DNA of 64,000 nt from a bacterium (GTDB taxonomy: Bacteria > Electryoneota > JAOADG01): NCBI GenBank assembly GCA_030247525.1, contig JAOTSC010000002.1:571-64570 (forward strand). The letters are read 5' to 3'. Below the pieces are notes generated by a model. The model saw only the letters and a program-made list of their open reading frames with translations, was not told the DNA's origin and made no database searches. Numbering within the stretch: the first letter of the stretch is position 1; each line of letters opens with the position of its first letter. Shown here piece by piece: positions 9,950-61,279 of this stretch. A program made the position numbers and the translations under genes.

Positions 9950-11241
9950 TGGCATTTCGAATGATGAAACGGGTAGTTATCGTTGCAATCACTCTTCTGA
10001 TCGGGTACTTAACTCTATCGGGAGCTGGCTCTGCACCTTTGCTACAGGTGATGTATCCTTCTAAAAGCAAGATGGAAGTGTCGACGCCTCATCATTATCT
10101 CGTGGGAGATGTCGATACGTTTACGGTAACCCGATTGGAATTGTCGCGCACTACCGAGCGGATTGATCAAATGACAGCAAAGTCCGGTTCCATTCGTAGT
10201 GAGTTTGTGAAAAAGGTTAGTGGATTGTTTTCCCGTGATTTCCAGATTACTAATTTTGAAATCACAGTGTTTTCCTTGAAACCGAATACGAAAGAAGTGA
10301 AGCATTCGATTTACTTCCCCGCACAGAATCGAGTCAACCGGGATGCTTTTTGGCAATCACACGAGTTTCAATCGATTTATGAGAAGGTTTTTAAGGATTC
10401 GTTGTTCCGTGGTCTCAATTTTGTCGCGAAAGGTAATCTTGTTTCCCATGTCGAGTTATCAAAACGGCGGTTGCTGGACAAACTCGGTTCAAAATTTGTC
10501 ATGCGGGTCGATTTATCACCCGGACAAAATGATTATACGCTTCGTGCGATGGACAATTCCGACCGAATTTTAGAGGAACACCGTTACTCATTCCTGTATA
10601 AACCAGCAGTGAGCGAAGAAATCAAGAGTTTACCGGGATACGAAGCGGTGAAGTTTCACACGCCGGAACAAGAACAAAACTGTGCCAGTTGCCACCGGAT
10701 GAAACCGAATGCATCGGAGTTGACTTCGAATACGGCAACTGTCCGATTGTGTTATCCTTGCCATGTCTGGGTGACTGCCAGTACCAATGTTCACTATCCC
10801 ATTACCGAATGGAATTGTTTCTACTGTCACAGTGCACCAAAATCCGGTGAATCCGGGTTCGATGTTTCCGATAAACGCAAAAGCGATCAAACCTGTTTTG
10901 AGTGTCACGAAGACCTGAAGGATGCTTTGGCGAAAACCGATTTTCCCCATGCTCCTGCTGGTTCCGGTGATTGTCTTATTTGCCATAACCCGCACGGCAG
11001 CGATTTTCGCGGGATGTCAGTCATGAAGCCGAACGACCTTTGTCTTTCCTGCCATGAGAAGAAATACAGCAAGGATCACCCTGTGATGATGCATCCCGTG
11101 CAGGGCGTTCGTGACAGCAAGTCTCCGAAACAAGAACTATCGTGCGTAAGCTGCCACAATCCGCACTATGGAAGTAATGAGAAACTCTTTTATAAAGCGA
11201 CCGGAACCTTCCAGCTTTGTCAGGAGTGCCACAAAAAATGA
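9949..11241 (+). CDS. Octaheme c-type cytochrome, membrane-anchored or secreted
   Basis: N-terminal hydrophobic anchor/signal. Eight CxxCH motifs (CASCH, CYPCH, CFYCH, CFECH, CLICHNPH, CLSCH, CVSCHNPH, CQECH). Translationally coupled to the upstream cytochrome (ATGA overlap). Confidence 0.8.
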   Translation: MAFRMMKRVVIVAITLLIGYLTLSGAGSAPLLQVMYPSKSKMEVSTPHHYLVGDVDTFTVTRLELSRTTERIDQMTAKSGSIRSEFVKKVSGLFSRDFQITNFEITVFSLKPNTKEVKHSIYFPAQNRVNRDAFWQSHEFQSIYEKVFKDSLFRGLNFVAKGNLVSHVELSKRRLLDKLGSKFVMRVDLSPGQNDYTLRAMDNSDRILEEHRYSFLYKPAVSEEIKSLPGYEAVKFHTPEQEQNCASCHRMKPNASELTSNTATVRLCYPCHVWVTASTNVHYPITEWNCFYCHSAPKSGESGFDVSDKRKSDQTCFECHEDLKDALAKTDFPHAPAGSGDCLICHNPHGSDFRGMSVMKPNDLCLSCHEKKYSKDHPVMMHPVQGVRDSKSPKQELSCVSCHNPHYGSNEKLFYKATGTFQLCQECHKK

Positions 11242-13385: not shown

Positions 13386-13392
13386 GGATTGG

Positions 13393-13911
13393 ATGTTTTG
13401 TATCCCCCGTAACTGGATGTTTCGTTTGTTCGCTATTGTTGTTTTAATGATGACTGTAAGTATTGTGATGGCATACCCGCAGGGACATCCGATGGCGGGT
13501 GGTTTAAAGAAGTCGGCGGATAGCACGAAAAGTATGGATTCGATCCCCCAAACACCGCTCCCGACATTCGATAAAGTTTGGATTTCGATTCGGAAAAGTA
13601 ACGGCGACAGTTTAGCGCCAATGGCAATGATGCCGAATGAACTCTATGCACTAAAAGGAACCGATGTCTTGTTACGTGTTACCGATTGCTATAGTCATTG
13701 GATGATTAAAGGAAAAGCGGTAAACTACTCGAAAGAGGAAAAGAACCCGGCGGTGAAAGTCGAGATACTTAAGGGTGAGACGGTATTGTATACCCGTTGG
13801 GCATTCAAAAATATCCCGTTCTTTGGAATGAACAACATGATGGGACACACCCAATCGGGTGATAATCAACTCTATTTCACTTTGACAAAATATGAAGGGA
13901 TGAAGTGGTAA
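13393..13911 (+). CDS. Hypothetical secreted protein, last gene of cytochrome cluster A
   Basis: ORF opens at 13270 but overlaps the upstream gene. ATG 13393 gives a signal-anchor (MFCIPRNWMFRLFAIVVLMMTVSIVMAYP). No recognisable domain. Confidence 0.4.
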   Translation: MFCIPRNWMFRLFAIVVLMMTVSIVMAYPQGHPMAGGLKKSADSTKSMDSIPQTPLPTFDKVWISIRKSNGDSLAPMAMMPNELYALKGTDVLLRVTDCYSHWMIKGKAVNYSKEEKNPAVKVEILKGETVLYTRWAFKNIPFFGMNNMMGHTQSGDNQLYFTLTKYEGMKW

Positions 13912-14096
13912 TTGTAGTGGTGAATAATGCTTGAACTGCCGGTGTGAGATTTCACAATGCAGTTGGCAGTATTACACTACCACACCATTCGCGTAGTATT
14001 AAAGCGATCTTATAGCTAATCAATGCATCCTTTCCTTTGCGAAAATGATTCGAGGACTGCAAACGACGATTTGTTCTTGAATTCCCGGTTTCCGAT

Positions 14097-15587
14097 ATGC
14101 TAATAAAAAAATTCAGTTTGCGATACCGGATCATCGCCTCGATGGTCTTAGCAATGACGATACCCATTGCCATATCGAGCTGGATTTCGATGAACGAGCA
14201 CCGGGAGTTAATGATTGCACAACACAAGCGATATCAGCAGTCGCTGATACAACTCGCCTTGAACAGCGTCATGCTGTTTATGGACACCAACCACCCCACT
14301 GAAATCCACAACTCCCTGACAGGACTACGCGATGAAACCCACATCAAATCGATTCGAGTCATTTCCAATGAGGGTATAATTCGTTACAGCTCGAGTCATC
14401 ATGAAATCGGTTCTGCCGTTCCCGATTCGTTGTGGCGGCGCTTATCTAAGAAACCGATTGATATGAAGACGCAAGATGTCATCGATTTCACAAACCAAAC
14501 AATGACACTCGTTATGCGGATACCTAAGGAGCAGCGCTGTTTGGCTTGTCATGACGAACAAAGTCTCAACTTGGGTTACATAAGTATCGTCGACGACATA
14601 TCTAACATAAACACCGAGCTGAATATCCACCTTCGCGAATATTTAGTGTTATCGACCGGGATAATACTTACCGTCGTGTTGACGATATTTGGTATTCACC
14701 TCCGTTTTGTTCAGCGCAACATAAAGCACATGGGCGGCGCAATATCAAAAGTCGAGCGGGGCGATTTTCGCTCGCATATCCCGGTTGACGACTCAGAAGA
14801 GATTGGGACATTAGCGCGCTCGTTCAATGGCATGATCGATCGCTTGAATGTGATGCGCGAAGAGCTGCGGATTGCACACTTGAAGGAATTGGAACGTGCC
14901 GATAAACTTGCCAGTGTCGGGCAGTTGGCTGCGAGCATGGCACATGAGATAAAAAATCCGGTTGCCGGCATCTCCAGTGCGATGCAAGTCTTGATTGAAG
15001 ACCCCGATCAGGACCAGCAAAATGTCCAGATTTTTGAAGAAATCGCCCGTCAAGTAACACGCATTGATCACGCCGTGAATAGTTTGTTGTATTTTGCTCG
15101 ACCGAGTGAACCACGGATGTCATTCACTTCGGTTGACACCCTGTTGGAATTTTCGATGAAACTGATTCTTCAACAGGCACGACAAGCGAATGTAGTTGTC
15201 AAACAGCATGTGGATGAAAACATCCCGGAGTTGTATGTCGATCCCGGACAAATCGAACAAGTTCTGGTGAATCTTTCGATAAATGGCATTCAAGCAATGC
15301 CGTCCGGAGGTACATTAACGATTTCGGTGACATACCAAAAAGAGTCAGACAAGATATTCTTTCGAATCAACGATACCGGAGAAGGTATCCCACCCGAAAA
15401 ATTGAAAGAGATTTTCAAGCCGTTCTACACCTCCAAGCATAAGGGAACCGGTCTTGGACTATCGATTTGCACCGGTATCATTACCCGCCATGGCGGCGAG
15501 TTGTTTGTAGATAGTGTTGTAGGCGCTGGTTCAACATTTTCATTCGTTTTACCACGGGCTTCCCTTGCTTCCCAATCCAAGCTGTAG
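14097..15587 (+). CDS. Sensor histidine kinase with a c-type heme-binding motif (CLACH) in the periplasmic sensor domain
   Basis: Two TM segments flank a ~150-aa periplasmic domain containing CLACHDEQ. HAMP region, HisKA H-box (ASMAHEIKNPVAGI) and HATPase_c G-boxes (NDTGEGI, GTGLGLSI). Confidence 0.8.
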   Translation: MLIKKFSLRYRIIASMVLAMTIPIAISSWISMNEHRELMIAQHKRYQQSLIQLALNSVMLFMDTNHPTEIHNSLTGLRDETHIKSIRVISNEGIIRYSSSHHEIGSAVPDSLWRRLSKKPIDMKTQDVIDFTNQTMTLVMRIPKEQRCLACHDEQSLNLGYISIVDDISNINTELNIHLREYLVLSTGIILTVVLTIFGIHLRFVQRNIKHMGGAISKVERGDFRSHIPVDDSEEIGTLARSFNGMIDRLNVMREELRIAHLKELERADKLASVGQLAASMAHEIKNPVAGISSAMQVLIEDPDQDQQNVQIFEEIARQVTRIDHAVNSLLYFARPSEPRMSFTSVDTLLEFSMKLILQQARQANVVVKQHVDENIPELYVDPGQIEQVLVNLSINGIQAMPSGGTLTISVTYQKESDKIFFRINDTGEGIPPEKLKEIFKPFYTSKHKGTGLGLSICTGIITRHGGELFVDSVVGAGSTFSFVLPRASLASQSKL

Positions 15588-15728
15588 ATAACTTTTCCAG
15601 TAACCCCCTCTTAGCACTTGAATTAGAACCGTTTCTTATTAACTTACATTGCGAATCGGCTATCGAACTCACGATTCTTTTGAATCAGACCGATTAGCAA
15701 TGAAAGAACAATCATACAATTCCATTGC

Positions 15729-17129
15729 TTGTGGACAGGGGTGAGCGTGTCGGATTACAAAATCAAATTGTTGATCATCGACGATGAAAAGTTGATCGGC
15801 TGGTCGTTAGCCAAACAATTTGAAAAGGACGGTTATCAGACTTTTACAGCTTTGTCGGGGGAAGAAGGACTCGAAGTGTTCCGTCGGGAATCCCCGGAAG
15901 TGGTGTTCCTCGATAACCGGTTACCCAAGAAATCGGGATTGGAAGTCCTGAAAGAAATTCGACATCACTCACAATCCACCATCGTCATCTTTATGACTGC
16001 CTACGGATCTACCGAGACCGCCGTCGAAGCTATGAAACTCGGTGCCTACGATTATGTGAACAAACCGTTTCAATACAACGATGTCAATTCAATTGTCGAA
16101 CAAGCAGTTAAGGCAAACAAACTCGACGCGGAAGTTCTGGATATCCGTCGTAAGCTTATGAGCCGCTACGGTTTTTCCAGCATCATCGGCGAATCGAGCC
16201 AGATGATGCACATCTTTGAGATTATCCGAAAGATAACACATTCAGAAGCTTCGACAGTTTTGATTTATGGCGAATCCGGCACCGGCAAGGAAGTAGTCGC
16301 CCGGGCGATTCATTACGAATCAAATCGTTTCCAGAAACCATTTGTAGCGATTAACTGTGCAGCATTACCGGAAACCCTATTAGAGAGCGAGTTGTTTGGC
16401 TATGAGCGTGGTGCATTTACCGACGCCAAGCAGATGAAACGCGGACAGTTCGAGTTGGCGGAGGGGGGCACCCTGCTCCTCGATGAAATCGGTGAACTCA
16501 GTATCCAAATGCAGGTGAAATTACTTAGAGCGTTGGAAACCCGAACATTTAAACGACTGGGTGGTACACAGGACACCAAAATCGATGTCCGGGTCATAGC
16601 AGCGACGAATCGTGACCTTCAAGCAGCAATAGCTGAAGGGCGGTTCCGGCAGGATCTTTATTTTCGTCTGAAAGTCGTCACGGTGCAGCTTCCCCCTCTG
16701 CGAGAACGTCCCGAAGATATTCTGATACTGTCTACTTACTTCATTAATCACTTCAACAGGGAATTTTCCAAAAAAGTTACCGGACTTGATGAACCAGCTC
16801 GATGTGCAATGCTTGCGTACGAGTGGCCGGGAAATGTCCGTGAGCTCAAGAATGTGATTGAACATAGTCTCGTACTCGAAAATGATACCCTCATCCGGTT
16901 AGAGCATCTTCCAATAGAAATCCTTGGCAAAAAGCCTCAAAAAGTAGATCCCAGCGCTGTCCAATTAGAGTTTCCGGTCACCGGATTCCCTTTAGAGGAA
17001 ATCGAGAAGCTGGCAATCCAGAAAGCACTTAACTACGCCAACGGCAACCAATCAAAAGCGGCAGCTTTGCTTTCAGTCACCCGTGACACAATTCGTTACA
17101 AAATGAAGAAGTTCGGATTACTCGATTGA
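15729..17129 (+). CDS. Sigma-54-dependent response regulator (NtrC family: REC + AAA+ + Fis-type HTH)
   Basis: REC domain (LLIIDDE...FLDNRLP...), sigma-54 activator motifs (GESGTGKE, GAFTDA, ESELFGYERGAFT, LLDEIGEL) and C-terminal HTH. Confidence 0.85.
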   Translation: MWTGVSVSDYKIKLLIIDDEKLIGWSLAKQFEKDGYQTFTALSGEEGLEVFRRESPEVVFLDNRLPKKSGLEVLKEIRHHSQSTIVIFMTAYGSTETAVEAMKLGAYDYVNKPFQYNDVNSIVEQAVKANKLDAEVLDIRRKLMSRYGFSSIIGESSQMMHIFEIIRKITHSEASTVLIYGESGTGKEVVARAIHYESNRFQKPFVAINCAALPETLLESELFGYERGAFTDAKQMKRGQFELAEGGTLLLDEIGELSIQMQVKLLRALETRTFKRLGGTQDTKIDVRVIAATNRDLQAAIAEGRFRQDLYFRLKVVTVQLPPLRERPEDILILSTYFINHFNREFSKKVTGLDEPARCAMLAYEWPGNVRELKNVIEHSLVLENDTLIRLEHLPIEILGKKPQKVDPSAVQLEFPVTGFPLEEIEKLAIQKALNYANGNQSKAAALLSVTRDTIRYKMKKFGLLD

Positions 17130-17398
17130 GCGAGTTTTTCGGGAAAGCTGAGGATTTACGCGCAGGGAACTGGGTGATATTGCACAGTCCAATTCCGATG
17201 TGATAATTACCGGTCGATACCACCCCTTGGTATTTGCGGAAAAGAAGCATCTGAGTTGTCATCTTGGATGGTGTCGCCTGGCAAGAATTTTCAATAATGA
17301 TTTTATGTTGTTGTTATTATAGTGTTTATATTATACTAAGCTGATCATATCCCATTCGAGTCTTTCCTTCCCGGTCATCAGGTGAATTTCCGCATATA

Positions 17399-17414
17399 TG
17401 GCACACTCTTTGCC
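17399..17414 (+). promoter_or_regulatory. Sigma-54 promoter (TGGCAC-N5-TTGC) upstream of cytochrome cluster B
   Basis: Exact -24/-12 consensus TGGCACactctTTGCc, ~58 nt upstream of ATG 17472 and immediately downstream of the sigma-54 activator gene. Confidence 0.5.
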
Positions 17415-17471
17415 AATCTGTCGGTAGCTAAATAGGCTTTACCAACCCAAGGTATCGAAGGATTCCCAAGA

Positions 17472-18710
17472 ATGTTATATCACTCGAAACTCTCACGCAC
17501 CGGAACGATTTGCATCGTTGCACTCATGGTCGCCGTGACCATCACGTCTGCCCTTGCGCTTCCTTCCTTTATCCATGCCACTCGCACCCTTGACGGGATT
17601 ACCGTCCAGCCGGAGCGGGTCGCTGTAGCTCCCAATGGCATAGTTTATCTGTCCGAACCTCAAAGCAACCGGATCTTAGCTGTTTCGACCGAGGGGATCG
17701 TTGTGGGTTCGATTCCGGTTGCTAATGTAATCGCTGTTGGTGTTCTTCCGAATGGCTCACTACTTGCCAGCCACGGAACCCAAGTCGATTGCTACAATGC
17801 GAATGGCACTTTTCAATTCTCATTGGGTAACGGGATCGGCGAATTCAACAAGGCAGGCGAGATTGCTGTTGCAACCGATGGTTCGATCTATGTGACCGAT
17901 ACCCGCCAACACGTTGTCAAAGTATACCAACCTGATGGAACTTTCCGGTTTGCATTCGGCAGCCGTGGTTCCGCCAACGGACAATTTGTATTTCCGACCG
18001 GCATCGCCCTAAGCGCAAACGAAACCGAAGTTTTTGTTGCCGATCAAGGCAATAGCCGCATCAACGTATATAGCCGCACCGGCAGCTATCTTCGTAGTTT
18101 CGGCCGTGCAACCTATCAAGTCGGTTCAAGCTGGGTATTTGATGGTACGTTTACCCGCGTTCAGGGAATTTCGGTCGATCAACTGAATCGACTCTACATT
18201 TCTGATTTGTATCAGAATGATGTACAAGTTCTTTCAGCCCAAGGCGAATTCTTAGGCAGAATCGTTCCTGGAACCAGTCTTCCCTTCGCTCATCCTGCAG
18301 ATTTGGTCGTAAGTGGTAACCAACTCTATATCCTTTCGACTTTCTCGAATCAAGTGTTCGCATATTCCATCGATGGCGTTACCAGTGTCAACAATCCAGC
18401 CGCCGCGATTGTTTCGCACTTTGCGCTGAATAACAATTATCCCAACCCCTTTAATGGTACGACTCGAATTCCGTTCGCCCTTAAGCAAAACGGTAAAGTA
18501 TCGTTGACCATTTGGAACGTACTGGGTCAGCAAGTCGGTACTCTCATCAATGCGAATATGAATGCGGGATACCATGAAGTCGTTTGGAACACTACCTCCG
18601 GCAGCTACGGCGCAGTGACCAGCGGTGTTTATTATTGCAAACTTTCCGTTGTCGACGAATCCGGAACCTCTCTTTACCAGTCGACCGGTAAAATGCTCTT
18701 TTTGAAGTAA
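17472..18710 (+). CDS. NHL-repeat beta-propeller protein with T9SS C-terminal sorting domain
   Basis: Signal peptide. NHL-like repeats (YVTD..., VFVAD..., YISD...). C-terminal NNYPNPFNGTTRIPFALKQNGKVSLTIWNVLGQQVGTL (T9SS CTD). Confidence 0.7.
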   Translation: MLYHSKLSRTGTICIVALMVAVTITSALALPSFIHATRTLDGITVQPERVAVAPNGIVYLSEPQSNRILAVSTEGIVVGSIPVANVIAVGVLPNGSLLASHGTQVDCYNANGTFQFSLGNGIGEFNKAGEIAVATDGSIYVTDTRQHVVKVYQPDGTFRFAFGSRGSANGQFVFPTGIALSANETEVFVADQGNSRINVYSRTGSYLRSFGRATYQVGSSWVFDGTFTRVQGISVDQLNRLYISDLYQNDVQVLSAQGEFLGRIVPGTSLPFAHPADLVVSGNQLYILSTFSNQVFAYSIDGVTSVNNPAAAIVSHFALNNNYPNPFNGTTRIPFALKQNGKVSLTIWNVLGQQVGTLINANMNAGYHEVVWNTTSGSYGAVTSGVYYCKLSVVDESGTSLYQSTGKMLFLK

Positions 18711-18734
18711 CCGATTTTACTAAGTCTCTACACA

Positions 18735-20381
18735 ATGGAGCGATTCTCAATGTTTTTGAAAAAACATCTTTTCATAGCGATTGCGGTGGTATGCGCATTG
18801 ACTTCTGTTGCCCTTTCGGAAGTAAATGAGCTTCAAGCTCCGCACGATGCGACGAACGCGATGGCATGCGCCAGTTGCCACGTACCTTATAATACAGTGC
18901 CACAACCGGTTCCGGAGAATTGGTTAACCACTTCGGTTTGCCAAAGCTGCCATACCAGCGGTGGTGTTGCTTCCAACATGAAAACTCACGTCGCCAATGC
19001 CGATACCGTATGGTGCCAGACTTGCCACGATCCGCACATGCACCAGACGACGTATCCCCGTTGGTATGTCAAGAATCAGATCATCACTCCGAATAGCGGC
19101 GCTCGTCCGTCGGTAATTCGTGATTCGCTTGACCTGATGCACGGCGCCACTGGTGTGGTTCAACCCTATGATGGTGTTTGTGAAACCTGCCACACTACTA
19201 CCCCGATTTTCCGCAACAATGCTTCGGGTCTGCACCCGACTACTGCTGCGTTGATGACCCATGAAGGTTCGGACAAGTGCACGAACTGTCACCAGCACAA
19301 GAACGGCTTCCAGTCTTCGACCAGTGCAAACACCTGTTTCGCTTGCCACTCCGCTTCCACGAATTCAGTCCGCGATACATCGTTGCATTACACCGCGTCG
19401 AATATGTACAGCCGTTTCGATACGCTGCGCACCACTTCTCACCCGGTTCGCAAGCTCTATGACAATGGACGCTTTGTGTTCGCCAAGGTGGAAGGCAATG
19501 CCGCAATCACGACCAAACTACTTCGTACGCCGTCATGGTTTTCTGGTACATCTTTAACCAGTTCATCCATGATCACCTGTACGGATTGCCACGGTGACTC
19601 TGCCGCAACCGCTTCGAAGGGTATGCATGGCTTGAGCTATCCAATGATGGAAGAGACGACCGCAGTTGCACTTCAGTTGCGTGCCAGTTTACGCCTCGGT
19701 ATGAATCAGGAATACGGTCCCAACTACGATCTGACTGGTAACGCTCTGTGCTATGCTTGCCATACCCCGGAATACTATCGACTGAGCGCTTCTGCTCGTC
19801 CGACCGGTTTCATGCGTTCAGACTCGAATCGTTGGTCCCGTCACTATTCGCACGTCGTGTACCACAATGCGAATACTCAGGAACGTCAGGAAAACTGCGT
19901 GACTTGTCACGGTGTCCATGGTGGCGCCACGACAGCACAAGATACTACGTTCCCAATAAATCGTGCATACGGTCGCACAGGCTTAATCCGTTGGTCGAAG
20001 CAAGCAACCGGTTTGGTGTTTGAACACGGTCAGACTGGTCCGGACTCCATTACCGTTCCAGACTCTACCTTGAAGACTGCGTTAACCGGCGGTTCGCCGC
20101 AAATCGCAACTGGTTATAAATCAGCTGCGTACGGATATTTCAAGTTCAAGAACAAGACCTATGATCGCACAATTCCACCGTTGTTACAAACAATGTGGAA
20201 TCTACGAGATACCGCTATCGTGAACGTAGCTGGTGATACCATTGCTGATTACTACCTTGGCTTCTGCTACGTCAATTGCCATACTGGTAAGGATCTTCCA
20301 ATGGTTGCTGGTGACACAGTTGGTACAAAGCATCCGAATAATCACTACGGTCGCTCTGTTTCCTATCGCATTTGGCGATAA
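18735..20381 (+). CDS. Multiheme c-type cytochrome with 9 CxxCH plus 1 CxxxCH motif
   Basis: Signal peptide. CASCH, CQSCH, CQTCH, CETCH, CTNCH, CFACH, CTDCH, CYACH, CVTCH and C-terminal CYVNCH (CX3CH). Confidence 0.8.
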   Translation: MERFSMFLKKHLFIAIAVVCALTSVALSEVNELQAPHDATNAMACASCHVPYNTVPQPVPENWLTTSVCQSCHTSGGVASNMKTHVANADTVWCQTCHDPHMHQTTYPRWYVKNQIITPNSGARPSVIRDSLDLMHGATGVVQPYDGVCETCHTTTPIFRNNASGLHPTTAALMTHEGSDKCTNCHQHKNGFQSSTSANTCFACHSASTNSVRDTSLHYTASNMYSRFDTLRTTSHPVRKLYDNGRFVFAKVEGNAAITTKLLRTPSWFSGTSLTSSSMITCTDCHGDSAATASKGMHGLSYPMMEETTAVALQLRASLRLGMNQEYGPNYDLTGNALCYACHTPEYYRLSASARPTGFMRSDSNRWSRHYSHVVYHNANTQERQENCVTCHGVHGGATTAQDTTFPINRAYGRTGLIRWSKQATGLVFEHGQTGPDSITVPDSTLKTALTGGSPQIATGYKSAAYGYFKFKNKTYDRTIPPLLQTMWNLRDTAIVNVAGDTIADYYLGFCYVNCHTGKDLPMVAGDTVGTKHPNNHYGRSVSYRIWR

Positions 20382-20412
20382 TTCGCACTACTTTGTTGTA
20401 ACTTTCTAAAAG

Positions 20413-20442
20413 CAGGGTATCGGGCAACCGATACCCTGTTTT
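20413..20442 (+). terminator. Rho-independent terminator after the 10-heme cytochrome gene
   Basis: CAGGGTATCGG-gcaa-CCGATACCCTG followed by TTTTA. Confidence 0.5.
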
Positions 20443-20492
20443 ACATGGATTTGTTCCCACAAGTGATAAAGCAGTATTGATGCAAAGGAACG

Positions 20493-20508
20493 TGGGTGTT
20501 ACATTGCA
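20493..20508 (+). promoter_or_regulatory. Possible sigma-54-type promoter upstream of the NHL lipoprotein gene
   Basis: TGGgtg-ttaca-TTGCA with GG-N10-GC spacing, ~70 nt upstream of ATG 20577. Weaker match than the other two. Confidence 0.3.
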
Positions 20509-20576
20509 GTTCATGTTATGAAGGTATCGTTTCGGAGCTGACGACTCCACATCCATTTTGACGGGAGTTACTCGTA

Positions 20577-21626
20577 ATGAATCCGGCAAAGACTTTTTTG
20601 CTTTTCACCTTGTTTACCTCACTCACACTTTTTTCTGTGGGTTGCGCTCCCAAACAGGCAATCAAACCCGATTTAGTCTGGCCGTCGGCACCGGAAAAGC
20701 CAAGGATAAAATTTCTACGAAGCATCCAAGGTAAGAGCGATTTCACTACATCCAAGATGGATGCTTTCAAGAAGACGTTAGCGGGTGAAACATCATTAGA
20801 ACGGGTAGTGAAGCCCTACGGATTAGCGATTGACAGCAAGGGACGCCTACTTGTAGCTGATGCCGGAAATCGTTGTGTGTTGGTGTTCGATGAGAATGCG
20901 AAGAAATCAGGCGACATCCTCACTTATATCGGAACAAGCGGTGCCGGTCAATTGACAGAGCCGGCAGGAGTTGCGGTCGACGATGAGGATCGAGTTTACG
21001 TGACCGATGTTCGACTAAATGCAGTGTTTGTTTTCGATGCAGAAGGAAACTTACTTCGCAATATCAAAGACACAGTAGCGTTTCAACGTCCTGCAGGTAT
21101 CGCCTATAACAAAGTCACACAGGAGATTATCGTCGTCGATACGAAAGCGTATCACGCGAAATGCTTTCGGAAAGATGGCTCGTTCGTTCGGACGATTGGA
21201 ACAAAAGGAAGCCGGGAAGGTGAGTTTAATCTTCCCAGTAACATCGTTTGTGACACCGATGGGTACATTTATATCGTCGATACAATGAATTTCCGGGTAC
21301 AGGTTTTCGATAAAGATGGTAAATTTGTTTCGACCTTTGGACAAGCGGACAACGTACCCGGCAGTTTTTCGCGGCCACGTGGCATCACTGTCGACAGCGA
21401 TAACAACATCTATGTCGCCGACGCGGCTTTCGATAACATACAGATATTTCAGCGTGACGGGTCATTGCTTTTATACTTCGGGGCGGCTGGTAAAGGGGAT
21501 GGACAGTTTCAGTTACCGGCGGGTTTATGTTTCGATCAAAAAAACCGCTTGTATGTCGCCGACCAGTACAATGGTCGGGTACAGGTTTTCCAATACATCC
21601 AATACAAAGCGGAAACGGGCAAATAG
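20577..21626 (+). CDS. NHL-repeat lipoprotein (paralog of 7089..8159)
   Basis: Lipobox (FSVGC). Six NHL-like repeats. C-terminus ...RVQVFQYIQYKAETGK parallels the paralog. Confidence 0.7.
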   Translation: MNPAKTFLLFTLFTSLTLFSVGCAPKQAIKPDLVWPSAPEKPRIKFLRSIQGKSDFTTSKMDAFKKTLAGETSLERVVKPYGLAIDSKGRLLVADAGNRCVLVFDENAKKSGDILTYIGTSGAGQLTEPAGVAVDDEDRVYVTDVRLNAVFVFDAEGNLLRNIKDTVAFQRPAGIAYNKVTQEIIVVDTKAYHAKCFRKDGSFVRTIGTKGSREGEFNLPSNIVCDTDGYIYIVDTMNFRVQVFDKDGKFVSTFGQADNVPGSFSRPRGITVDSDNNIYVADAAFDNIQIFQRDGSLLLYFGAAGKGDGQFQLPAGLCFDQKNRLYVADQYNGRVQVFQYIQYKAETGK

Positions 21627-21640
21627 TCTTTAGTACTACT

Positions 21641-23017
21641 CTATTCTTCCAGTTTCTTTCGCTGTCGGGTTTGGAATAAGACCACTGTGAGACCGACCAT
21701 TAAAACGATACAACCGGCGTACACAATGGTGGTTCCCGGGTCGTAGGATACGGTAAACACCGATATTTTCGGCGGTCCGGGTATCACGCTGTATTGGTAG
21801 ATTTTCCAACCGTGATACGTTAACGGCGCGTTCATTTCGATGTCATACGCGAAGGAACTCGCCGATCCCTCATTCACCGTCACCTCACTCGAGATCCCTG
21901 CAGCGATTTTGTTGCCGGGATAATACTTCTGATTGACTTTGTTTAGACGTAGTGCAAATCCCAATTCATCGGTGTGGGAAGTCAAACGAAACAGAACATC
22001 GTTGTGGTTAGAAGCGAGTTCCGAATTCTTCTTCATCCAGAATGCATTTGATCGCCCGCCCGTAGGATCTTCGATTCGGAATTTTAATGCAAACTCGCCT
22101 TCGCCGCTTTTTGCCGGGACAAAATTCCTCATCTGCACCGCAAAACTCTCTAAGGAGCGTACCGTAACGGTATTGATACTGTCAAGTACCAGTTTCTGTC
22201 CAAGCGAAATCGGTTGCAGAATGGGCTGTGGCGCATGGACGGCGAGATAGGATAAATCGGATTCGGTTGCAACCAGTAAATAATCTGCAGGCGCTTCCAG
22301 CAGATAGGACATATCCATTTTATCGCGGGGAACAAAGGCGAACAGCAGTTTTTTGCCATTCGGCAACATGACTTCGCCATCCGGTCCATCGCCACACCAC
22401 AATTGCTTATCGACTTCTTTTCCCAGTGCTTCCAACGTTACATCAATGAGCGGTACACCGGTTGGATCGGAGACGTAGGTGAGTTTTCCCACTCCCGATG
22501 GGAGGTAGCGGAGTAGTTCGATCCGGCCTTTATTGAAGGGGAGGTCGATACGTTTCGGTCGTCCGTCTTCTGAGCGCGGAATTGTCTCAAAGCGAAGCGG
22601 TAACACCGCCGAACGACCATCGGATAACTGAACTTCCAGTTGATAAGAGTTGCGGTTGAGTAGCCTTGTTGACTCGCCTTCCGCTAACTTAATTGTTCCC
22701 TCGATACTGTATTCCCGACTGATAACCGCACCAATTAACACGACAAGTACACCGGTATGAGTCATCAACCACCCGATTTGCCCGATCCGATAGGGAAACC
22801 GTTGTACGGTACATGCGATGAGATTGACTGCTAATAAACCCAACAGAAAGTCAAACCAGATGCTATGGTAGATGTCGAGTTGTGCCAGCAAAGTTCCTGC
22901 CGTTGCTTCATACGCAGTCCCGGTCATCATCGCAAGCGCAATGACGACGAGCAGGACAATCGTCAACTGGATCGAGGCAAGAAAGCGATAAATCTTGGCA
23001 AGCAATGTTACTCCCAT
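21641..23017 (-). CDS. ResB/CcsB-like cytochrome c biogenesis (System II) protein
   Basis: ResB-like topology: three N-terminal TM helices, a large periplasmic domain, and a C-terminal TM (TIVYAGCIVLMVGLTVVLFQ). N-terminus resembles ResB (..IVLLVVIALAMMTGT...). No ccsA/resC partner in the window. Confidence 0.5.
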   Translation of the reverse strand: MGVTLLAKIYRFLASIQLTIVLLVVIALAMMTGTAYEATAGTLLAQLDIYHSIWFDFLLGLLAVNLIACTVQRFPYRIGQIGWLMTHTGVLVVLIGAVISREYSIEGTIKLAEGESTRLLNRNSYQLEVQLSDGRSAVLPLRFETIPRSEDGRPKRIDLPFNKGRIELLRYLPSGVGKLTYVSDPTGVPLIDVTLEALGKEVDKQLWCGDGPDGEVMLPNGKKLLFAFVPRDKMDMSYLLEAPADYLLVATESDLSYLAVHAPQPILQPISLGQKLVLDSINTVTVRSLESFAVQMRNFVPAKSGEGEFALKFRIEDPTGGRSNAFWMKKNSELASNHNDVLFRLTSHTDELGFALRLNKVNQKYYPGNKIAAGISSEVTVNEGSASSFAYDIEMNAPLTYHGWKIYQYSVIPGPPKISVFTVSYDPGTTIVYAGCIVLMVGLTVVLFQTRQRKKLEE

Positions 23018-36048: not shown

Positions 36049-36087
36049 AGCGAGGCGTCCTTCGAGAGGACGCCTCGCTTTTTTTCT
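36049..36087 (+). terminator. Rho-independent terminator
   Basis: Perfect 12-bp stem AGCGAGGCGTCC-ttcgaga-GGACGCCTCGCT followed by TTTTTTTT. Confidence 0.65.
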
Positions 36088-37984: not shown

Positions 37985-38878
37985 ATGAAACTTATCGCAT
38001 TCTCGCTCGACGGACACCAACGTCGGATCGGCATTCTCCACGATAATCTCGTTTACGATTTGCGCGATCTGTTTGTCGCATTGGCAAAGCAGCGCGATTG
38101 GCCGGTATTGCCGGTTTTCGATTTCGCCGATTTCTTTGACGCACCCACCTATGCAAACTTCGACACGTTGCAGGCTGCTTATGAGTTGTCGCAATCGCAA
38201 GGGGTTACCACCTATGAGCTTGACCGGGTAAAGCTATTGGCGCCATTTGCAAAAGGGGCAAAGATGATTGCGATTGGCCGCAACTATGGCGCTCATGCCC
38301 GCGAACTTGGCAACGAACTGCCGACCGAACCGATGTACTTTGCGAAATTAGCAAGCTGCGTAATCGCGCCGGGTGAACCGATTGTTTTGCCACCGGAATC
38401 GAATCGGGTCGATCATGAAGGTGAACTTGCCGTTGTTCTTGGAAAGCGATTGTCGAAGCCGAAATTACTCGATGAGGCATTGGCGGCGGTCTTTGGATAT
38501 ACTTGCGCCAACGATGTCACTGCCCGCGATATCCAGAAAGCGGCAGCGGCAAAGGGACAGCCGTGGACCCGCGGCAAGAATTACGATACGTTCTGTCCCA
38601 TCGGCCCCTGCATTGTTACTGCCGACTCCTATGATGCGTCGGCGGTGGATGTCCGTTGTCGAGTCAATGGTGAGATCAAGCAAGATGGTAATACCCGTGA
38701 CTTTATCTTTTCGGTAGGTACATTGTTACATTACGTATCACAACATATCACCTTGGAACCGGGTGACGTTTTGTTAACGGGAACCCCCGAAGGAGTATCG
38801 CCGTTATCGAATGGGGATATTGTGGAAGTGTCGATCAATGGAATCGGCTCGCTCACCAATCCTGTGAAAGCGTTGTAG
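37985..38878 (+). CDS. Fumarylacetoacetate hydrolase (FAH)-family protein
   Basis: HEGELAVVLGK, GYTCANDVTARD and KNYDTFCPIGP motifs of the FAH / 2-keto-4-pentenoate hydratase family. Confidence 0.8.
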   Translation: MKLIAFSLDGHQRRIGILHDNLVYDLRDLFVALAKQRDWPVLPVFDFADFFDAPTYANFDTLQAAYELSQSQGVTTYELDRVKLLAPFAKGAKMIAIGRNYGAHARELGNELPTEPMYFAKLASCVIAPGEPIVLPPESNRVDHEGELAVVLGKRLSKPKLLDEALAAVFGYTCANDVTARDIQKAAAAKGQPWTRGKNYDTFCPIGPCIVTADSYDASAVDVRCRVNGEIKQDGNTRDFIFSVGTLLHYVSQHITLEPGDVLLTGTPEGVSPLSNGDIVEVSINGIGSLTNPVKAL

Positions 38879-38879
38879 C

Positions 38880-38930
38880 GGCGTATGGCATACGCCAAGT
38901 TAAGAGGGCGGACAGGGCGTCCGCCCCTAC
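38880..38930. repeat. REP-like extragenic palindromes (GTAG + GGCGTATGgCATACGCC, then GGGCGGAC-agggc-GTCCGCCC followed by CTAC)
   Basis: The same 17-nt palindrome GGCGTATGGCATACGCC recurs at 59882..59898. GC-stem + CCCCTAC units also occur at 55576..55599, 55699..55721, 59951..59973 and 60141..60165. Confidence 0.45.
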
Positions 38931-53278: not shown

Positions 53279-54268
53279 TTACTGTATATGGGACAAATAC
53301 TCTTGTAAACAATCTAAGTGCGAGTGCGCGCCTTCGATTGCGTGGAATTGTGTCACCACTTCGTCGCGCTTTTCAATGGTTGTGAACACCGAGTGCATCG
53401 TCAATTTGGTATCGGCGCCGTGATCCTCCAACGTCATCGTAACAATGAAATCGACATCCGCTTCCTCGTCGCAATTGTGTGAGTAGACCAATCGCTCATT
53501 CATAACGACTTCCCGGTACGCAACATAATTTTCGTAGGTTTCGCCGGCTGGACCATACATAACAAACCGCCACACTCCACCGGGTCGAACGGTCATGTTC
53601 CGATTGGTTACGGTATAACCTTTCGGACCCCACCAATTCACGACATGATTCGGATCGGTCCATGCCCGATAGACTAATTCCCGTGGCGCTTTCAGAATTC
53701 GCGTCACGATGATGCTGCGGGCGGCAAACTCCGCTTCTGTCTCATCGCTGCGTTTTGCAAATTCGCCGGGGTCTCTCACTGATTTCCGCTCGGTTTTCAT
53801 GCTGGCGTTCGCCAATTCTTCGGCACATTCCGCAAAGTGCAGCATCAGGGTCGACCAACCTTCGCGTTGTTGCTCCTCACTATGGGTTGCTTCCAACATC
53901 AGTATCAACGTGAGTCTTGTTTTTCCCGCAATCTCCTCAAAGGCAGTAACAAGCGCTCTGCCATCGGCAAGCACATAGTAAAGAAGCGCTGGTTCCCGGA
54001 TGTCGTGATAGACCCCTTCATATACAAAACTATGGGCATTCTCCGGTGACGCCATGCCAATGCGAAACGTGCCGCCGGGACGAACATCGGTTTCCGCAAA
54101 CGGCACCGTCCAGCCATCGGTAGCGTAATGCCATTTCACGATGTGCTTCGGATCGGTAAATACTTGATACACCAACTCCCGCGGTGCATCGATGTCCCGG
54201 GAGATGACAATCACACGATTGTCTACTCCCGACGGTTGTGGTTGATTTGCTTCCAAGTTTCCCCCCAA
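53279..54268 (-). CDS. Tandem SRPBCC / AHSA1-like (Activator of Hsp90 ATPase homolog) domain protein
   Basis: Two ~150-aa repeats each with the AHSA1-like signature (I.R.IDAPRELVY..FTDP..I.KW...G). Confidence 0.65.
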   Translation of the reverse strand: MGGNLEANQPQPSGVDNRVIVISRDIDAPRELVYQVFTDPKHIVKWHYATDGWTVPFAETDVRPGGTFRIGMASPENAHSFVYEGVYHDIREPALLYYVLADGRALVTAFEEIAGKTRLTLILMLEATHSEEQQREGWSTLMLHFAECAEELANASMKTERKSVRDPGEFAKRSDETEAEFAARSIIVTRILKAPRELVYRAWTDPNHVVNWWGPKGYTVTNRNMTVRPGGVWRFVMYGPAGETYENYVAYREVVMNERLVYSHNCDEEADVDFIVTMTLEDHGADTKLTMHSVFTTIEKRDEVVTQFHAIEGAHSHLDCLQEYLSHIQ

Positions 54269-55542: not shown

Positions 55543-55547
55543 TGTAG

Positions 55548-55721
55548 GGGTTCGATTCATCGAACCCGACTCAAAAGGGCGCAATGAATTGCGCCCCTAC
55601 GAAAGAAGATGAAAATTACCTTCGATGAGCCCTTCGGGTGTTGCCACGTCGCTACGGTCGCACAAGGTTGTGATCAGCTCTCCACACAACGACAAAAAGG
55701 GCGGCTGCCAGCCGCCCCTAC
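55548..55721. repeat. Cluster of REP-like palindromes (GTAGGGG + GGTTCGA-ttca-TCGAACC; GGGCGCAAT-ga-ATTGCGCCC CTAC; GGGCGGCTG-c-CAGCCGCCC CTAC)
   Basis: Three GC-rich hairpins each flanked by GTAG/CTAC. The third is the same palindrome as 59955..59973 with the central base inverted. Confidence 0.45.
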
Positions 55722-55798
55722 TATGAAACTTCGGGCTTGGAGCCCTAACCACCAACCATCTATCACCTATTCCTCAGCACCCAAACCCAACACCAACA

Positions 55799-58696: not shown

Positions 58697-59785
58697 GTGC
58701 TTATGTACACGTTTAATCCCTTAGGGATTATCGATTTCGACCACATTCAGTTTACCGTTCAAGATGCCACCGCCATCGATGCTTCGTACGATGCGATGGG
58801 ATTTACCCGCACCGAAGTAAAGGTTGCAAGAGGTTACTCCTCTCATCTATTCAAACAAGGGGCAATTCGGGTTATTGTAAGCGTGAATGCACCGTTAGAT
58901 TCGTTTCCCGGGAAGTACCGGGAAGAGCATGGAGACGGTGTTTGTACGATTGGCTTTCGGGTTCATTCAGCGGAACATGCGCTCCAAGAGGCAGTGCACC
59001 GCGGAGCGAAAATGGCGGAACCGGTATCCGAACGAAATGTCAATGGCGCATTGTATCGAACTGCCTCAATTCAAGGCTTCGGAGCAGTCCGAAATTTATT
59101 CGTCGAACGCCCTGATGATGGCGGTCCCGTATTTCTGCCGGGTTACACTCACCTACACCACCCAATGGCAAAACAACCACTAAAATTTGGACTCGAGCGG
59201 ATCGACCACATGACCAATAACGTCCCTGAAGGGGAGATGGATGTTTGGGTCGAGTTTTACAAACGGATTTACGGTTTTGAAGTCGTTCGCGATTTTGATA
59301 TCAAGGGTCTCGAAACCGGGTTGTTAAGCAAAGTAGTAGCAAGCCACGACCGGAAAGTGATTATCCCGATTAACGAACCGCAGAAGATGAGCGGTAAAAA
59401 AGGGCAAATCGAGGAATTTCTCGATATGAATCACGGACATGGGGTACAGCACGTCGCGTTCCGGACAGCTAATTTGATGTATGTGATTCAGACCTTACGC
59501 GAGCGCGGTCTCGTTTTCCTCGATGCACCGCCGGACACCTATTACGATACGATTCCAAACAGGGTACCGGGCGTCCGTCAACCACTCGATGAATTGAAGG
59601 CGTTAGGTATACTGGTCGATGGCGATCCCGATGGATACCTGTTGCAACTCTTCACAAAGTATATGGTTGGACCGCTCTTCTACGAATTCATCCAGCGGGA
59701 AAAACATGATGGATTTGGCGAGGGGAACTTCCAAGCGCTCTTCGACTCCATCGAAGCCGACCAACGACGACGTGGTGTATTGTAA
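58697..59785 (+). CDS. hppD: 4-hydroxyphenylpyruvate dioxygenase
   Basis: Two VOC modules. HPPD signatures (NHGHGVQHVAFRT, GYLLQLFTK, FYEFIQREKHDGFGEGNFQALFDSIE). Confidence 0.85.
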   Translation: MLMYTFNPLGIIDFDHIQFTVQDATAIDASYDAMGFTRTEVKVARGYSSHLFKQGAIRVIVSVNAPLDSFPGKYREEHGDGVCTIGFRVHSAEHALQEAVHRGAKMAEPVSERNVNGALYRTASIQGFGAVRNLFVERPDDGGPVFLPGYTHLHHPMAKQPLKFGLERIDHMTNNVPEGEMDVWVEFYKRIYGFEVVRDFDIKGLETGLLSKVVASHDRKVIIPINEPQKMSGKKGQIEEFLDMNHGHGVQHVAFRTANLMYVIQTLRERGLVFLDAPPDTYYDTIPNRVPGVRQPLDELKALGILVDGDPDGYLLQLFTKYMVGPLFYEFIQREKHDGFGEGNFQALFDSIEADQRRRGVL

Positions 59786-59830
59786 GTAGCTCAGACAATC
59801 TTGTCTGAGTCATTCGTTCCGTCTCCCATC

Positions 59831-60090
59831 CGTACGTTGGACATTCTTGTCCAACGGGCGTTAAATAGCATTGGACGGGAGGGGCGTATGGCATACGCCC
59901 CTTCTTTTTTTGGGGGAGTCGTGTGGTGGTTACGGGCTTCCAAGTCAGTTTGTAGGGGCGGCTGGCAGCCGCCCGTGAGTAAGGGCGAATCTTGTGTTCG
60001 CCCTTTTTACAGGTCTGGAGACCTGTCAGTACCCGAACCATAATAAACTCATGTACTCATCTCGCCCGTTGGACAAGAATGTCCAACGTA
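59831..60090. mobile_element. MITE-like element: 260 bp bounded by perfect 29-bp inverted repeats, full of REP-like hairpins
   Basis: GTACGTTGGACATTCTTGTCCAACGGGCG at 59831..59859 and its exact reverse complement at 60062..60090. Interior holds GGCGTATGGCATACGCC, GGGCGGCTGgCAGCCGCCC, GGGCGAATCttgtGTTCGCCC and AGGTCTggAGACCT. No ORF. Lies between convergent genes. Confidence 0.45.
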
Positions 60091-60161
60091 CTGAAAAATG
60101 CAACGGGCTTGGAAGCCCGTAGCCACCATCTCTGATTTTCGGGGTGCAAGTGTCTGCGCCC

Positions 60162-60653
60162 CTACTTGATATCAAACCAGAGGTCGTTGTTCATATCGCT
60201 TAGGAATTGGTCGCGGTCGCCTTGTTCCTTGATTTGTTCGACGGAATGCAGTGCGAGTTCGCGCCACTTCAGTGCTTCGTCCCGATTCCCCGCAGCCGCG
60301 TACGCTCTTGCCATTCCTTCGTAAGCATACCCCAAATCGAAGTCGGTGAAATGATGTTCCATCGTCAAATCGTAACAGCGTTTCGCATGGTGCAGCGCTT
60401 GCTCGGGACGCTTTAGCACTGCCGCGACATGGGAAATCATCCATTCGCCGCGTTGTGTGTTGAGGGTCGTACCGACATAACTCCAGTGTTGTGCCGAAGC
60501 ATAAGCGAGCCGTAATGCGGTCTCCCCATCTTCGATCTCCTTCGATGCGACATATTTATCTAAAAAGTCCCACGACTGATTGAAGAATTCAATCGCATAA
60601 TACTTGTGCATCTCTTCTTTGGTCGGCACTTTTTTCTCGGGTTGCTCACTCAT
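60162..60653 (-). CDS. Hypothetical helical (TPR-like) protein
   Basis: 163-aa ORF, helical composition, no specific motif. Confidence 0.45.
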   Translation of the reverse strand: MSEQPEKKVPTKEEMHKYYAIEFFNQSWDFLDKYVASKEIEDGETALRLAYASAQHWSYVGTTLNTQRGEWMISHVAAVLKRPEQALHHAKRCYDLTMEHHFTDFDLGYAYEGMARAYAAAGNRDEALKWRELALHSVEQIKEQGDRDQFLSDMNNDLWFDIK

Positions 60654-60655
60654 GT

Positions 60656-61279
60656 TTATCCTTTCTTTTCAACACCTTTCCAACGCAAAGGGCCCTCAAC
60701 AAATCGCCGATACAAGTTCTTCAAGGTTTCCCCATTTCCCCACGCAAACAATTGATACACTTTATCAAATTCCGGTTTCGCCTCCCAGCCGCACATCGAG
60801 ATTATTACTTTAGTATTATTCGCATCAATGGGATGAAACTCGATAACCGTTGCGATTTTTGCTGCGACTTCCGGATTGGGAAAACCGGGCGGGGTGCGTT
60901 TTATCCGAATCGAAAGCAATCGCTCCGGGACAAACGATAGCACTTCATTCTGGATGTTTGTGGTATCACCGATGCGGTGGGTGGGGTCGTAACTCGCTTC
61001 CCAGACTCCTCCAACCCGGAAATCGATTTCGACAACCGGCGCGACAAAGGAACGCAACCCTTCAGTCGTTGTAAAAGCATTCCAAACTTCTTTGACTGAG
61101 GTGGGTATCACCGCTTCGTGTTGCAGCAGTTTTCCGGTGGCGTGTTGAAAGGAGGTGTTTTTTACGACCGAGTCCGGCAGTGTAAAAGCGAACAAAGAAC
61201 TTGCTAATGCGAGTAACGTGAGCAATCCGAGCCCTACCGCTCTTATTGACATCTTCCTCCCCCCTGAAAACCGAATCAT
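60656..61279 (-). CDS. Secreted SRPBCC-like protein
   Basis: Signal peptide, then EVWNAFTTTEGLRSFVAPV..DFRVGGVWEASYDP, resembling SRPBCC/AHSA1-type ligand-binding domains. Confidence 0.45.
   Translation of the reverse strand: MIRFSGGRKMSIRAVGLGLLTLLALASSLFAFTLPDSVVKNTSFQHATGKLLQHEAVIPTSVKEVWNAFTTTEGLRSFVAPVVEIDFRVGGVWEASYDPTHRIGDTTNIQNEVLSFVPERLLSIRIKRTPPGFPNPEVAAKIATVIEFHPIDANNTKVIISMCGWEAKPEFDKVYQLFAWGNGETLKNLYRRFVEGPLRWKGVEKKG

Follow-up and report, generated by a model that had tools for sequence, protein, structure and literature searches.

Introduction

Repetitive extragenic palindromes (REPs) that carry an unpaired terminal GTAG tetranucleotide form a superfamily in which the stem has 6-13 bp and the loop is short (Di Nocera, De Gregorio & Rocco 2013, PMC3733652). 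The stem-loops of this superfamily are 20-40 bp in length. Its sub-families vary by complementary changes in the stem, and the units occur as head-to-head dimers ('HH', with the tags outside), as tail-to-tail dimers and in clusters (PMC3733652). They lie no more than 20 bp from the 3' ends of open reading frames (ORFs) that are convergent or unidirectional, and the TAG of the tag can be the stop codon (PMC3733652). In the 2013 survey, GTAG repeats are recorded for no groups other than Proteobacteria, Cyanobacteria, Chloroflexi and the PVC group, and the degenerate tags given are GYAG, GYRG, GTRG, GTMG and GTGG; GTAC is not among them (PMC3733652). Bacterial interspersed mosaic elements (BIMEs) are mosaics of REP units and have been linked to REP-associated tyrosine transposases (RAYTs) (Nunvar et al. 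2010, PMC2817692). The TnpA(REP) of Stenotrophomonas maltophilia cleaves a 23-nt REP in vitro; when the tag is GTAC the REP is bound and cleavage is abolished, while in Marinomonas GTAC redirects the cleavage to GA/GT (Corneloup et al., PMC8266576). Here we describe a 376-nt intergenic spacer in a 64,000-nt stretch of contig JAOTSC010000002.1 (assembly GCA_030247525.1, positions 571 to 64,570 of the forward strand), which we call the window and number from its first base. A preliminary description had seen in this spacer a 260-bp element resembling a MITE (miniature inverted-repeat transposable element) with perfect 29-bp terminal inverted repeats (TIRs), or alternatively a structured non-coding RNA (ncRNA) or a large cruciform. 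We found that the spacer is probably a BIME-like cluster of GTAG-type REP units.

Results

The spacer (59786-60161) lies between the HPPD gene on the + strand and an ORF of 163 amino acids (the 163-aa ORF) on the - strand, and the two genes are convergent, as had been described. It is a mosaic of about 10 short hairpins, the majority of which carry an unpaired GTAG, GTAC or GTAA tag, and the hairpins reach both stop codons, past the limits of the proposed 260 bp. The supposed 29-bp TIR is best filed as a head-to-head homodimer of one REP unit (unit A: GTAC tag, 9-bp stem and TTCT loop) with its tags outward, and the 260-bp stretch itself is probably not a transposing unit. What supports this reading by observation is that tagged hairpins are present, that they recur where other genes end, both in the window and in a relative (L025), that stems in the class of the arm show compensatory changes, and that tags supply stop codons.

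The sequence GTACGTTGGACATTCTTGTCCAACGGGCG is present at 59832-59860 on the + strand and as its exact reverse complement at 60063-60091; the perfect repeats were thus recovered, their coordinates having been given one base too low at each end. A 29-nt repeat of this kind had 0 matches in 100 dinucleotide shuffles of the window. The arms lengthen to 32 nt at 97% identity (59829-59860 / 60063-60094) and are spaced 202 nt apart (59861-60062). The palindrome TTGGACA-N4-TGTCCAA that had been noted inside each arm was confirmed, with 2 occurrences in the window as compared to 0.02 expected. When the + strand was folded, each arm stayed a local hairpin in the minimum-energy structure and the arms were not paired together. 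Hairpin h1, at the HPPD end of the spacer, was found to be a diverged third copy of the arm hairpin and of the same class (core GACAWTCTTGTC).

Inside the arms we located the four GC-rich hairpins of the preliminary description at 59880-59902, 59956-59974, 59981-60005 and 60009-60026. The ORFs in this interval are merely mechanical and have no Pfam match, so that the claim of an ORF-free interior held. A second inverted repeat of 27 nt (89%; 59924-59950 / 60102-60128) has one arm within and one arm outside the proposed element, and since it straddles the boundary, the 260 bp are not a closed unit. The modules on the right-hand side are ordered as on the left and each is flipped singly, so that the spacer is not one large inverted duplication. 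The loop of the GTAA-tagged hairpin at 59979-60009 has AATCTTGT in common with h1. Neither the boundary-crossing repeat nor the h1 copy, the GTAG-type tags or the hairpins beyond the 260 bp had been recognized earlier.

All 256 tetranucleotides directly preceding a perfect hairpin were scanned in the 64-kb window. GTAG stood immediately before a perfect stem of 8 bp or more 6 times versus 0.31 expected (P = 8e-7; 2e-4 corrected). The only comparably frequent heads of 8-bp stems were A-rich and represented the back side of terminator T-runs. GTAG heads the hairpins at 59786, 59952, 60165, 55544, 55600, 55721, 38930 and 38875 (5' to 3' on the relevant strand), GTAC heads both arms, and GTAA heads the hairpin at 59979. 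The sequence GTAGGGGCG was found 5 times in the window, versus 0.38 expected. Altogether there are about 8 tagged units in the 64 kb, at three loci, and the majority have no T-run. The stems measure 7-10 bp and the loops 2-7 nt. All the strong tagged units are confined to three 3'-end spacers, two convergent and one unidirectional. The units at 59786 and 55544 start 0-1 nt past stop codons, and at 38876-38878 (FAA-hydrolase) and 60162-60164 (163-aa ORF) the TAG of the tag doubles as the stop codon.

Modules of the spacer recur at the other two loci (Table 1). The 23-nt unit REP23 (GTAGGGGCGGCTGGCAGCCGCCC) at 59952-59974 is identical to 55699-55721, on the opposite strand. REP23 and a second module, unit B, form a composite that occurs twice, as 55699-55768 matches 59924-59974 inverted. 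Unit B consists of a small GC hairpin followed by GTA(A/G)CCACCA and adjoins REP23 at both sites; its copies at 55730-55768, 59924-59950 and 60102-60135 have a C/A-rich tail (TAACCACCAACCATCTATCACC in the window). Unit B is a second repeat family that travels with the GTAG units. The tags point outward in both head-to-head dimers of the window (38875-38930 and 55544-55600). One interior hairpin had been said to occur also at 38880, and we indeed found its 17-mer GGCGTATGGCATACGCC again at 38880-38896. The 17-mer is GTAG-tagged at 38880, and the hairpin that holds it in the spacer, which belongs to the HPPD terminator, has no GTAG tag.

Table 1. Positions of the repeat units, hairpins, genes and predicted terminators in the window
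Feature	Positions	Strand	Description
Head-to-head heterodimer	38875-38930		GTAG-c-GGCGTATGGCATACGCC ... GGGCGGACAGGGCGTCCGCCC-CTAC; TAG of the left tag is the stop of the FAA-hydrolase gene
Head-to-head heterodimer	55544-55600		GTAG-GGGTTCGATTCATCGAACCC ... GGGCGCAATGAATTGCGCCC-CTAC; begins 1 nt past the stop of a 238-aa ORF
REP23 and third copy of unit B	55699-55768		REP23 at 55699-55721 (-); unit B at 55730-55768 (+)
HPPD	58697-59785	+	Pfam Glyoxalase_5/Glyoxalase; stop TAA 59783-59785
Hairpin h1	59786-59809	+	GTAG-CTCAGACA-ATCT-TGTCTGAG; first base directly after the HPPD stop; core GACAWTCTTGTC
Unit A, left arm	59832-59860 (imperfect extension to 59829)	+	GTAC tag, 9-bp stem and 4-nt loop CGTTGGACA-TTCT-TGTCCAACG, then GGCG
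HPPD intrinsic terminator (predicted)	59877-59912 (scan: 59877-59905 and T-run)	+	GC-rich stem containing GGCGTATGGCATACGCC, then TTCTTTTTTT
Unit B, degenerate copy	59924-59950	-	hairpin remnant and GTAACCACCA tail; left arm of the second inverted repeat
REP23	59952-59974	+	GTAGGGGCGGCTGGCAGCCGCCC: GTAG tag, 8-bp perfect stem, 3-nt loop
GTAA-tagged hairpin	59979-60009	+	GGGCGAA-TCTTGTG-TTCGCCC, then TTTTT
7-bp hairpin	60009-60032	-	ACAGGTC-TCCA-GACCTGT, with GTAC-TG ahead on the - strand
Unit A, right arm	60063-60091 (extension to 60094)	-	exact reverse complement of 59832-59860
Unit B, intact copy	60102-60128	+	hairpin ACGGGCTT-GG-AAGCCCGT and AGCCACCA
Predicted terminator of the 163-aa gene	60120-60103, then TGCATTTTTC	-	consensus scan; hairpin is the intact unit B read on the - strand
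Imperfect tagged hairpin	60140-60165	-	GTAG-GGGCGCAGACACTTGCACCCC; TAG of the tag ends the 163-aa ORF
163-aa ORF	60162-60653	-	no Pfam family; MDK9698626.1, locus tag OEM52_00555

The nearest relative found, L025 (on the 902-kb contig k141_3035862, ENA ERZ27245409), was obtained via the neighboring phosphorylase (70% identity). Its HPPD is 73% identical, and it keeps the divergent HPPD-phosphorylase pair. Within 22.5 kb, L025 has 9 GTAG-tagged hairpins, including subtypes seen in the window. Its unit GTAG-GGGCGCAAT.tg.ATTGCGCCC differs in one loop base from the unit at 55600 and stands head-to-head with GTAG-GGGTCGCAT..., which are the same two unit types as in the dimer at 55544-55600. At 15699 L025 has a unit of the same class as the 29-nt arm, GTAG-GACAGACA-TTCT-TGTCTGTC, again with the core GACAWTCTTGTC. 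When h1, the arms and the unit at L025 15699 were compared, the inner stem and loop were invariant (GACA-WTCT-TGTC) and the outer 4 bp were fully compensated (CTCA/TGAG, GTTG/CAAC and GACA/TGTC). In the alignment of the class, a small sample, 32 out of 32 cells pair and 4 out of the 8 pairs are changed on both sides. Compensated changes in the outer stem are the pattern of a hairpin-selected repeat family. At a looser cut-off (6-bp stems), eight unrelated genome loci with 64 kb in total had 2 tagged hairpins. No tagged hairpin was found in 60 kb from L028, L029 and L019 (two further relatives at 69%, GC ~38%, and one unrelated locus).

The 3' flank of HPPD in L025 carries a plain terminator only, 5 nt past the stop (AGGCGGAA-CTGC-TTCCGCCT followed by T8), and a different gene downstream. 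This indicates that the cluster is not ancestral at that depth, and the flank is not a precise empty site. Several further features of L025 were recorded. At 13284-13333 a head-to-head GTAG dimer lies within a called 867-aa ORF of a type IX secretion system (T9SS) protein, which is either a miscalled start or an intragenic REP. At 15499-15927 a cluster of five or more tagged hairpins is overlain by a called 142-aa ORF, which is probably spurious. A 29-nt tail element that we group with unit B, CCAYCCACCATCCACTATCCACCATTCAC, is repeated at 97% (13007-13035 and 15848-15876), and the spacer downstream of HPPD has a tandem direct repeat of ~36 nt in two copies at 8540-8620 (ATGCGAAAATTCCATNATAAGCCGNTTACTCTTT).

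Copies of the arm hairpin were sought in DNA collections that do not include the source metagenome-assembled genome (MAG). With the loop left free, 8 single matches were obtained in 185,579 representative genomes, which is about the chance number; the genomes were unrelated, and in none of the 8 did the flanks match those of the arm. There were 0 matches in viral contigs and 0 in JGI metagenomes. No plasmid or phage matched the whole spacer in a BLAST search, and neither the arms nor the whole 260 bp had a further copy within the window. The REP23 23-mer was present in 8 unrelated metagenome contigs with a GC content of 50-74%, one of which has a second GTAGGGGCG hairpin 63 nt off. This spread fits a widespread, partly convergent repeat type. 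In the Ga0123353 metagenome contigs L011, L014 and L016, GTAGGGGCGGCTGGCAGCCGCCC is embedded in a longer repeat of roughly 100 nt or more (…gcccctctgtgccggggcggg…cttactttgc… / …gttgctttttgcctttttaatatgaattgctgc…), which is common to the three contigs and partly repeated within L016; it is a different, larger repeat built on REP23.

A Pfam search of the 53 ORFs of the window revealed no RAYT (Y1_Tnp) and no other transposase or recombinase, and the precomputed Pfam listing of the called genes of L025 contained none of these either. That no RAYT lies in 64 kb carries little weight, given that a genome is expected to have one such gene. At least six proteins with Por_Secre_tail were present among the window ORFs, from which the host probably belongs to the FCB group. 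Among the paralogues found with these T9SS domains, none had an accession of the source assembly.

The assembly of the run SRR20819803 breaks at the arms. The independent Logan contigs L001 and L018 approach from opposite sides and both end in ...CCAACGGGC (also written ...GTACGTTGGACATTCTTGTCCAACGGGC), 28 nt into the arm, with L001 ending at window position 60064 and L018 at 59859. Contigs L021 and L022 of the same run pass unbroken across both other tagged clusters, the one at 38.9 kb and the one at 55.6 kb. Because the arms have only 29 nt in common, the two arms alone cannot branch a k=31 graph. The symmetric breaks could reflect extra copies of the arm in the sample, structural heterogeneity, or an Illumina artefact after a hairpin and GGC; Illumina sequencing has a systematic error mode where GGC follows an inverted repeat. 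A partial ORF across the interior was used to look for a Logan contig that spans 59861-60062, and no record was obtained.

Alternative explanations

Among the alternatives, an origin of the hairpins in place survives best, although we regard it as unlikely. According to this explanation the hairpins arose by local duplication, inversion and template switching and were kept only as terminators and RNA stabilizers, with neither transposase nor dispersal. A loop motif, AWTCTTGT, is common to three or four hairpins of the spacer, which suggests that they were duplicated locally; in all the collections searched the arm sequence is found at this site alone, two of the hairpins are canonical intrinsic terminators, and no transposase is encoded nearby. 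These points have to be set against the identical or near-identical tagged units in unrelated spacers 4 kb and 21 kb off and in another genome. Moreover, the unpaired GTAG tag is strongly enriched although it plays no part in termination, and most tagged hairpins lack a T-run.

That the 260 bp are a genuine MITE, a non-autonomous element with 29-bp TIRs mobilized by a DDE-type transposase encoded elsewhere, appears quite improbable. The perfect 29-nt arms, the length of ~260 bp and the lack of a credible ORF have the look of such an element, and the two SRR20819803 contigs that end 28 nt into the arm, with the other clusters passed, are compatible with further copies. However, the flanks (...ctcccatcc / tgaaaaatgc...) showed no direct repeat when examined for a target-site duplication; a TA duplication could be hidden in the palindromic GTAC at the outer ends, where TA cannot be scored. 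In addition, the second inverted repeat spans the boundary, the mosaic interior is made up of units that are each repeated independently, and the arm folds on itself as a tagged hairpin, of a class found singly elsewhere. No other copy was present in the collections scanned and no transposase in the window. What stands of the MITE-like reading is that the spacer holds repeat-family material thought to be non-autonomously mobile (REP/BIME, with a RAYT acting in trans); the discrete 260-bp unit does not stand.

We also considered an invertible segment, in which site-specific or homologous recombination between the arms would flip the 202-nt interior with its two + strand terminators, and found it very improbable. 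The arms are perfect inverted repeats of typical inverton length, and the assembly breaks are symmetric at the arms. By our reasoning, however, inversion heterogeneity should end k=31 unitigs after the 29th base of the arm, and not after the 28th. The window encodes no invertase or recombinase by Pfam, no clear promoter lies inside, and a switch between two convergent 3' ends makes little regulatory sense.

Even less probability attaches to a structured ncRNA or 3' untranslated region (UTR) element with a long-range helix formed by the two arms. The folding energy of the spacer is very low (z ~ -11.5 relative to shuffles), but it is equally low for RNA of either strand, and for DNA as well, which marks palindromy at the DNA level. 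Rfam gave no match at the gathering threshold; the 7 matches at a permissive E-value were far below their gathering scores, the top one reaching 19.9 bits (c4-a1b1) versus 46.7. The minimum-energy fold of the + strand leaves the arms unpaired with each other, and the collections scanned held no homologous sequence for a covariation test. Since the predicted terminators of both genes lie between the arms, the arms could share one transcript only by read-through of two terminators. The large cruciform of the preliminary description is likewise disfavored on general grounds, since a 202-nt spacer is too long for a cruciform in duplex DNA; a single strand could fold back.

Paired operators are just as improbable. 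In this reading a dimeric regulator would bind TTGGACA-N4-TGTCCAA as a 7-4-7 site, and the DNA would be looped between the two sites, which are 232 bp apart. The palindrome does have a typical operator geometry, and the inner half-sites (GACA/TGTC) are invariant across the class. However, the sites lie where two 3' ends converge and where there is no promoter to be controlled, and the GTAG-type tag and covarying outer stems of the class point to hairpin formation and not to duplex recognition. Other candidates were dropped. Integron attC sites have RYYYAAC ... GTTRRRY core sites that bound an imperfect palindrome of 57-141 bp, in a cassette array next to intI; GTCCAAC/GTTGGAC fit the core, but span 227 nt, with no array and no integrase in the window. 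A sigma-54 box in the TGGCA loops was discarded for want of a -12 element, and a tRNA-like 3' end in unit B (GCCACCA) for want of T-arm geometry.

Neighboring genes and other features

The terminators of both genes were placed by a consensus scan. The stem of the HPPD terminator has 10 perfect pairs (13 in the terminator scan, with G-T allowed). The left arm lies within the HPPD 3' UTR, upstream of this terminator, and the right arm lies just past the T-run of the terminator of the 163-aa gene. The GTAA-tagged hairpin at 59979-60009 would serve as a second terminator on the + strand. The strongest untagged hairpin of the window, at 36049-36079, has a 13-bp GC-rich stem (AGCGAGGCGTCCT-TCGAG-AGGACGCCTCGCT) 20 nt past the stop of a T9SS-sorted protein and is probably a terminator.

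The nearest homologues of the 163-aa ORF are just 45-47% identical. When these homologues were used to look for an orthologous spacer, 2 contigs were checked and neither was syntenic. Two ORFs of the AHSA1/SRPBCC family lie nearby, at 53279-54268 and 60656-61279, the latter directly upstream of the 163-aa ORF.

Elsewhere in the window, 3898-23017 holds a cluster of multihaem c-type cytochromes (Paired_CXXCH_1 / Cytochrome_C7; 3898-4548, 4632-5384, 8156-9949, 9949-11241 and 18735-20381), and between them are encoded NHL beta-propeller proteins, a ResB-like and an OmpA-like protein, and a histidine kinase with a sigma-54 activator. This region looks like an extracellular electron-transfer or metal-respiration locus.

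Discussion

By analogy with the published family, the hairpins of the proposed REP cluster may act at two levels. On RNA, single hairpins would be 3'-end structures, i.e., intrinsic terminators and barriers to 3' exonucleases, for both converging genes. On DNA, the units would be seeded and turned over by a RAYT/TnpA(REP), an HUH tyrosine transposase encoded elsewhere, which would recognize the folded single strand with the tag as a guide. The unusually long 202-nt interval between the arms would have been filled secondarily by other units and by the HPPD terminator.

Several points weigh against assignment to the REP superfamily. The counts of tagged units come from the 64-kb window and 22.5 kb of L025, with the source MAG outside the collections scanned. 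The arm hairpin occurs nowhere else in the window, is at chance level in the 185,579 genomes and is missing from the JGI metagenomes. Its tag is GTAC and not GTAG, although the closest members of its class do carry GTAG, and GTAC abolishes the cleavage by the S. maltophilia TnpA(REP) in vitro and redirects it in Marinomonas (PMC8266576). No RAYT (Y1_Tnp) was detected in the 53 ORFs of the window or in the Pfam listing for L025. The 202-nt interval exceeds the 20-100 bp that is typical of REP dimers. Finally, some of the hairpins may simply be terminators. By analogy with the cleavage studies, the arms could be immobilized units or units with a shifted cleavage site.

A bolder proposal, which we offer tentatively as a minority possibility, is that the unit-A doublet belongs to a REPIN-like family that is active, is specific to the lineage and has exchanged its GTAG tag for GTAC, in an uncultured host lineage that bears a T9SS. 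If this were true, the cleavage site would be retargeted by the guide logic known from the Marinomonas TnpA(REP), further copies in the population would explain why two contigs end at the same base of the arm, and the host lineage would be one in which no REP/RAYT system has been described before.

As a member of a REP cluster, the perfect inverted repeat, striking as it is, belongs to an ordinary REP/BIME-type landscape, and an annotation as MITE or ncRNA is unwarranted. GTAG-tagged REPs appear to be present in a poorly sampled lineage rich in T9SS-sorted proteins, with sub-families common to genomes that are ~70% identical at the protein level. The GTAC sub-class is a natural variant of the guide tetranucleotide, for which an effect on RAYT cleavage has been measured in vitro. 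Annotation of such genomes also calls for caution, given the spurious ORF calls over clusters (e.g., the 142-aa ORF of L025) and the stop codons supplied by tags.

We compared the locus with other systems that contain foldable repeats. Correia/NEMIS and ERIC MITEs are similar in having 100-300 bp, terminal inverted repeats and no ORF, and in being intergenic and foldable. They differ from the locus studied here, for which neither a target-site duplication nor, in the collections scanned, multiple full-length copies were found, and which has a mosaic interior and a boundary crossed by a repeat. The self-complementary TIR repeats associated with TIRYT (PMC3733652) are longer inverted-repeat units, some of them self-complementary, that form dimers and clusters at moderate copy number, as the units of the spacer do in part. 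However, they flank a tyrosine-transposase gene and many have GGGGWSAS, and neither feature was seen here. REPINs, as they are cited in PMC3733652 (Bertels & Rainey 2011), resemble the arms in having two identical inverted REPs able to form one long hairpin in single-stranded DNA. The spacer of a REPIN is short and conserved and the doublet is repeated, whereas here unrelated modules fill the 202 nt between the arms, and a second doublet did not turn up.

The BIMEs of E. coli and other bacteria are closer to the spacer. They are intergenic REP mosaics at the 3' ends of genes, with units in alternating orientation and other short motifs interleaved. In the spacer, by comparison, the spacing is irregular and several unit types are mixed, and we take unit B with its CCACCA tail to be unrelated to the linker motifs of the E. 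coli BIMEs.

The closest system is the GTAG REP superfamily, which includes the SMAG repeats of S. maltophilia. The superfamily usually has more than 100 dispersed copies; we counted ~8 tagged units in 64 kb of the window and 9 in 22.5 kb of L025, and saw no cognate RAYT there. The 29-nt arms carry GTAC, and the host, which has many T9SS-sorted proteins, probably lies outside the groups listed for GTAG repeats. On the other hand, both have units of 20-25 nt with a perfect stem of 6-9 bp, a loop of 2-5 nt and an unpaired GTAG at one end. Both share the location at 3' ends, the TAG that serves as a stop codon, the head-to-head dimers, the clusters and the complementary stem changes between sub-families. 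The architecture of REP23 (4+8+3+8) is that of the S. maltophilia REP cleaved by TnpA(REP).

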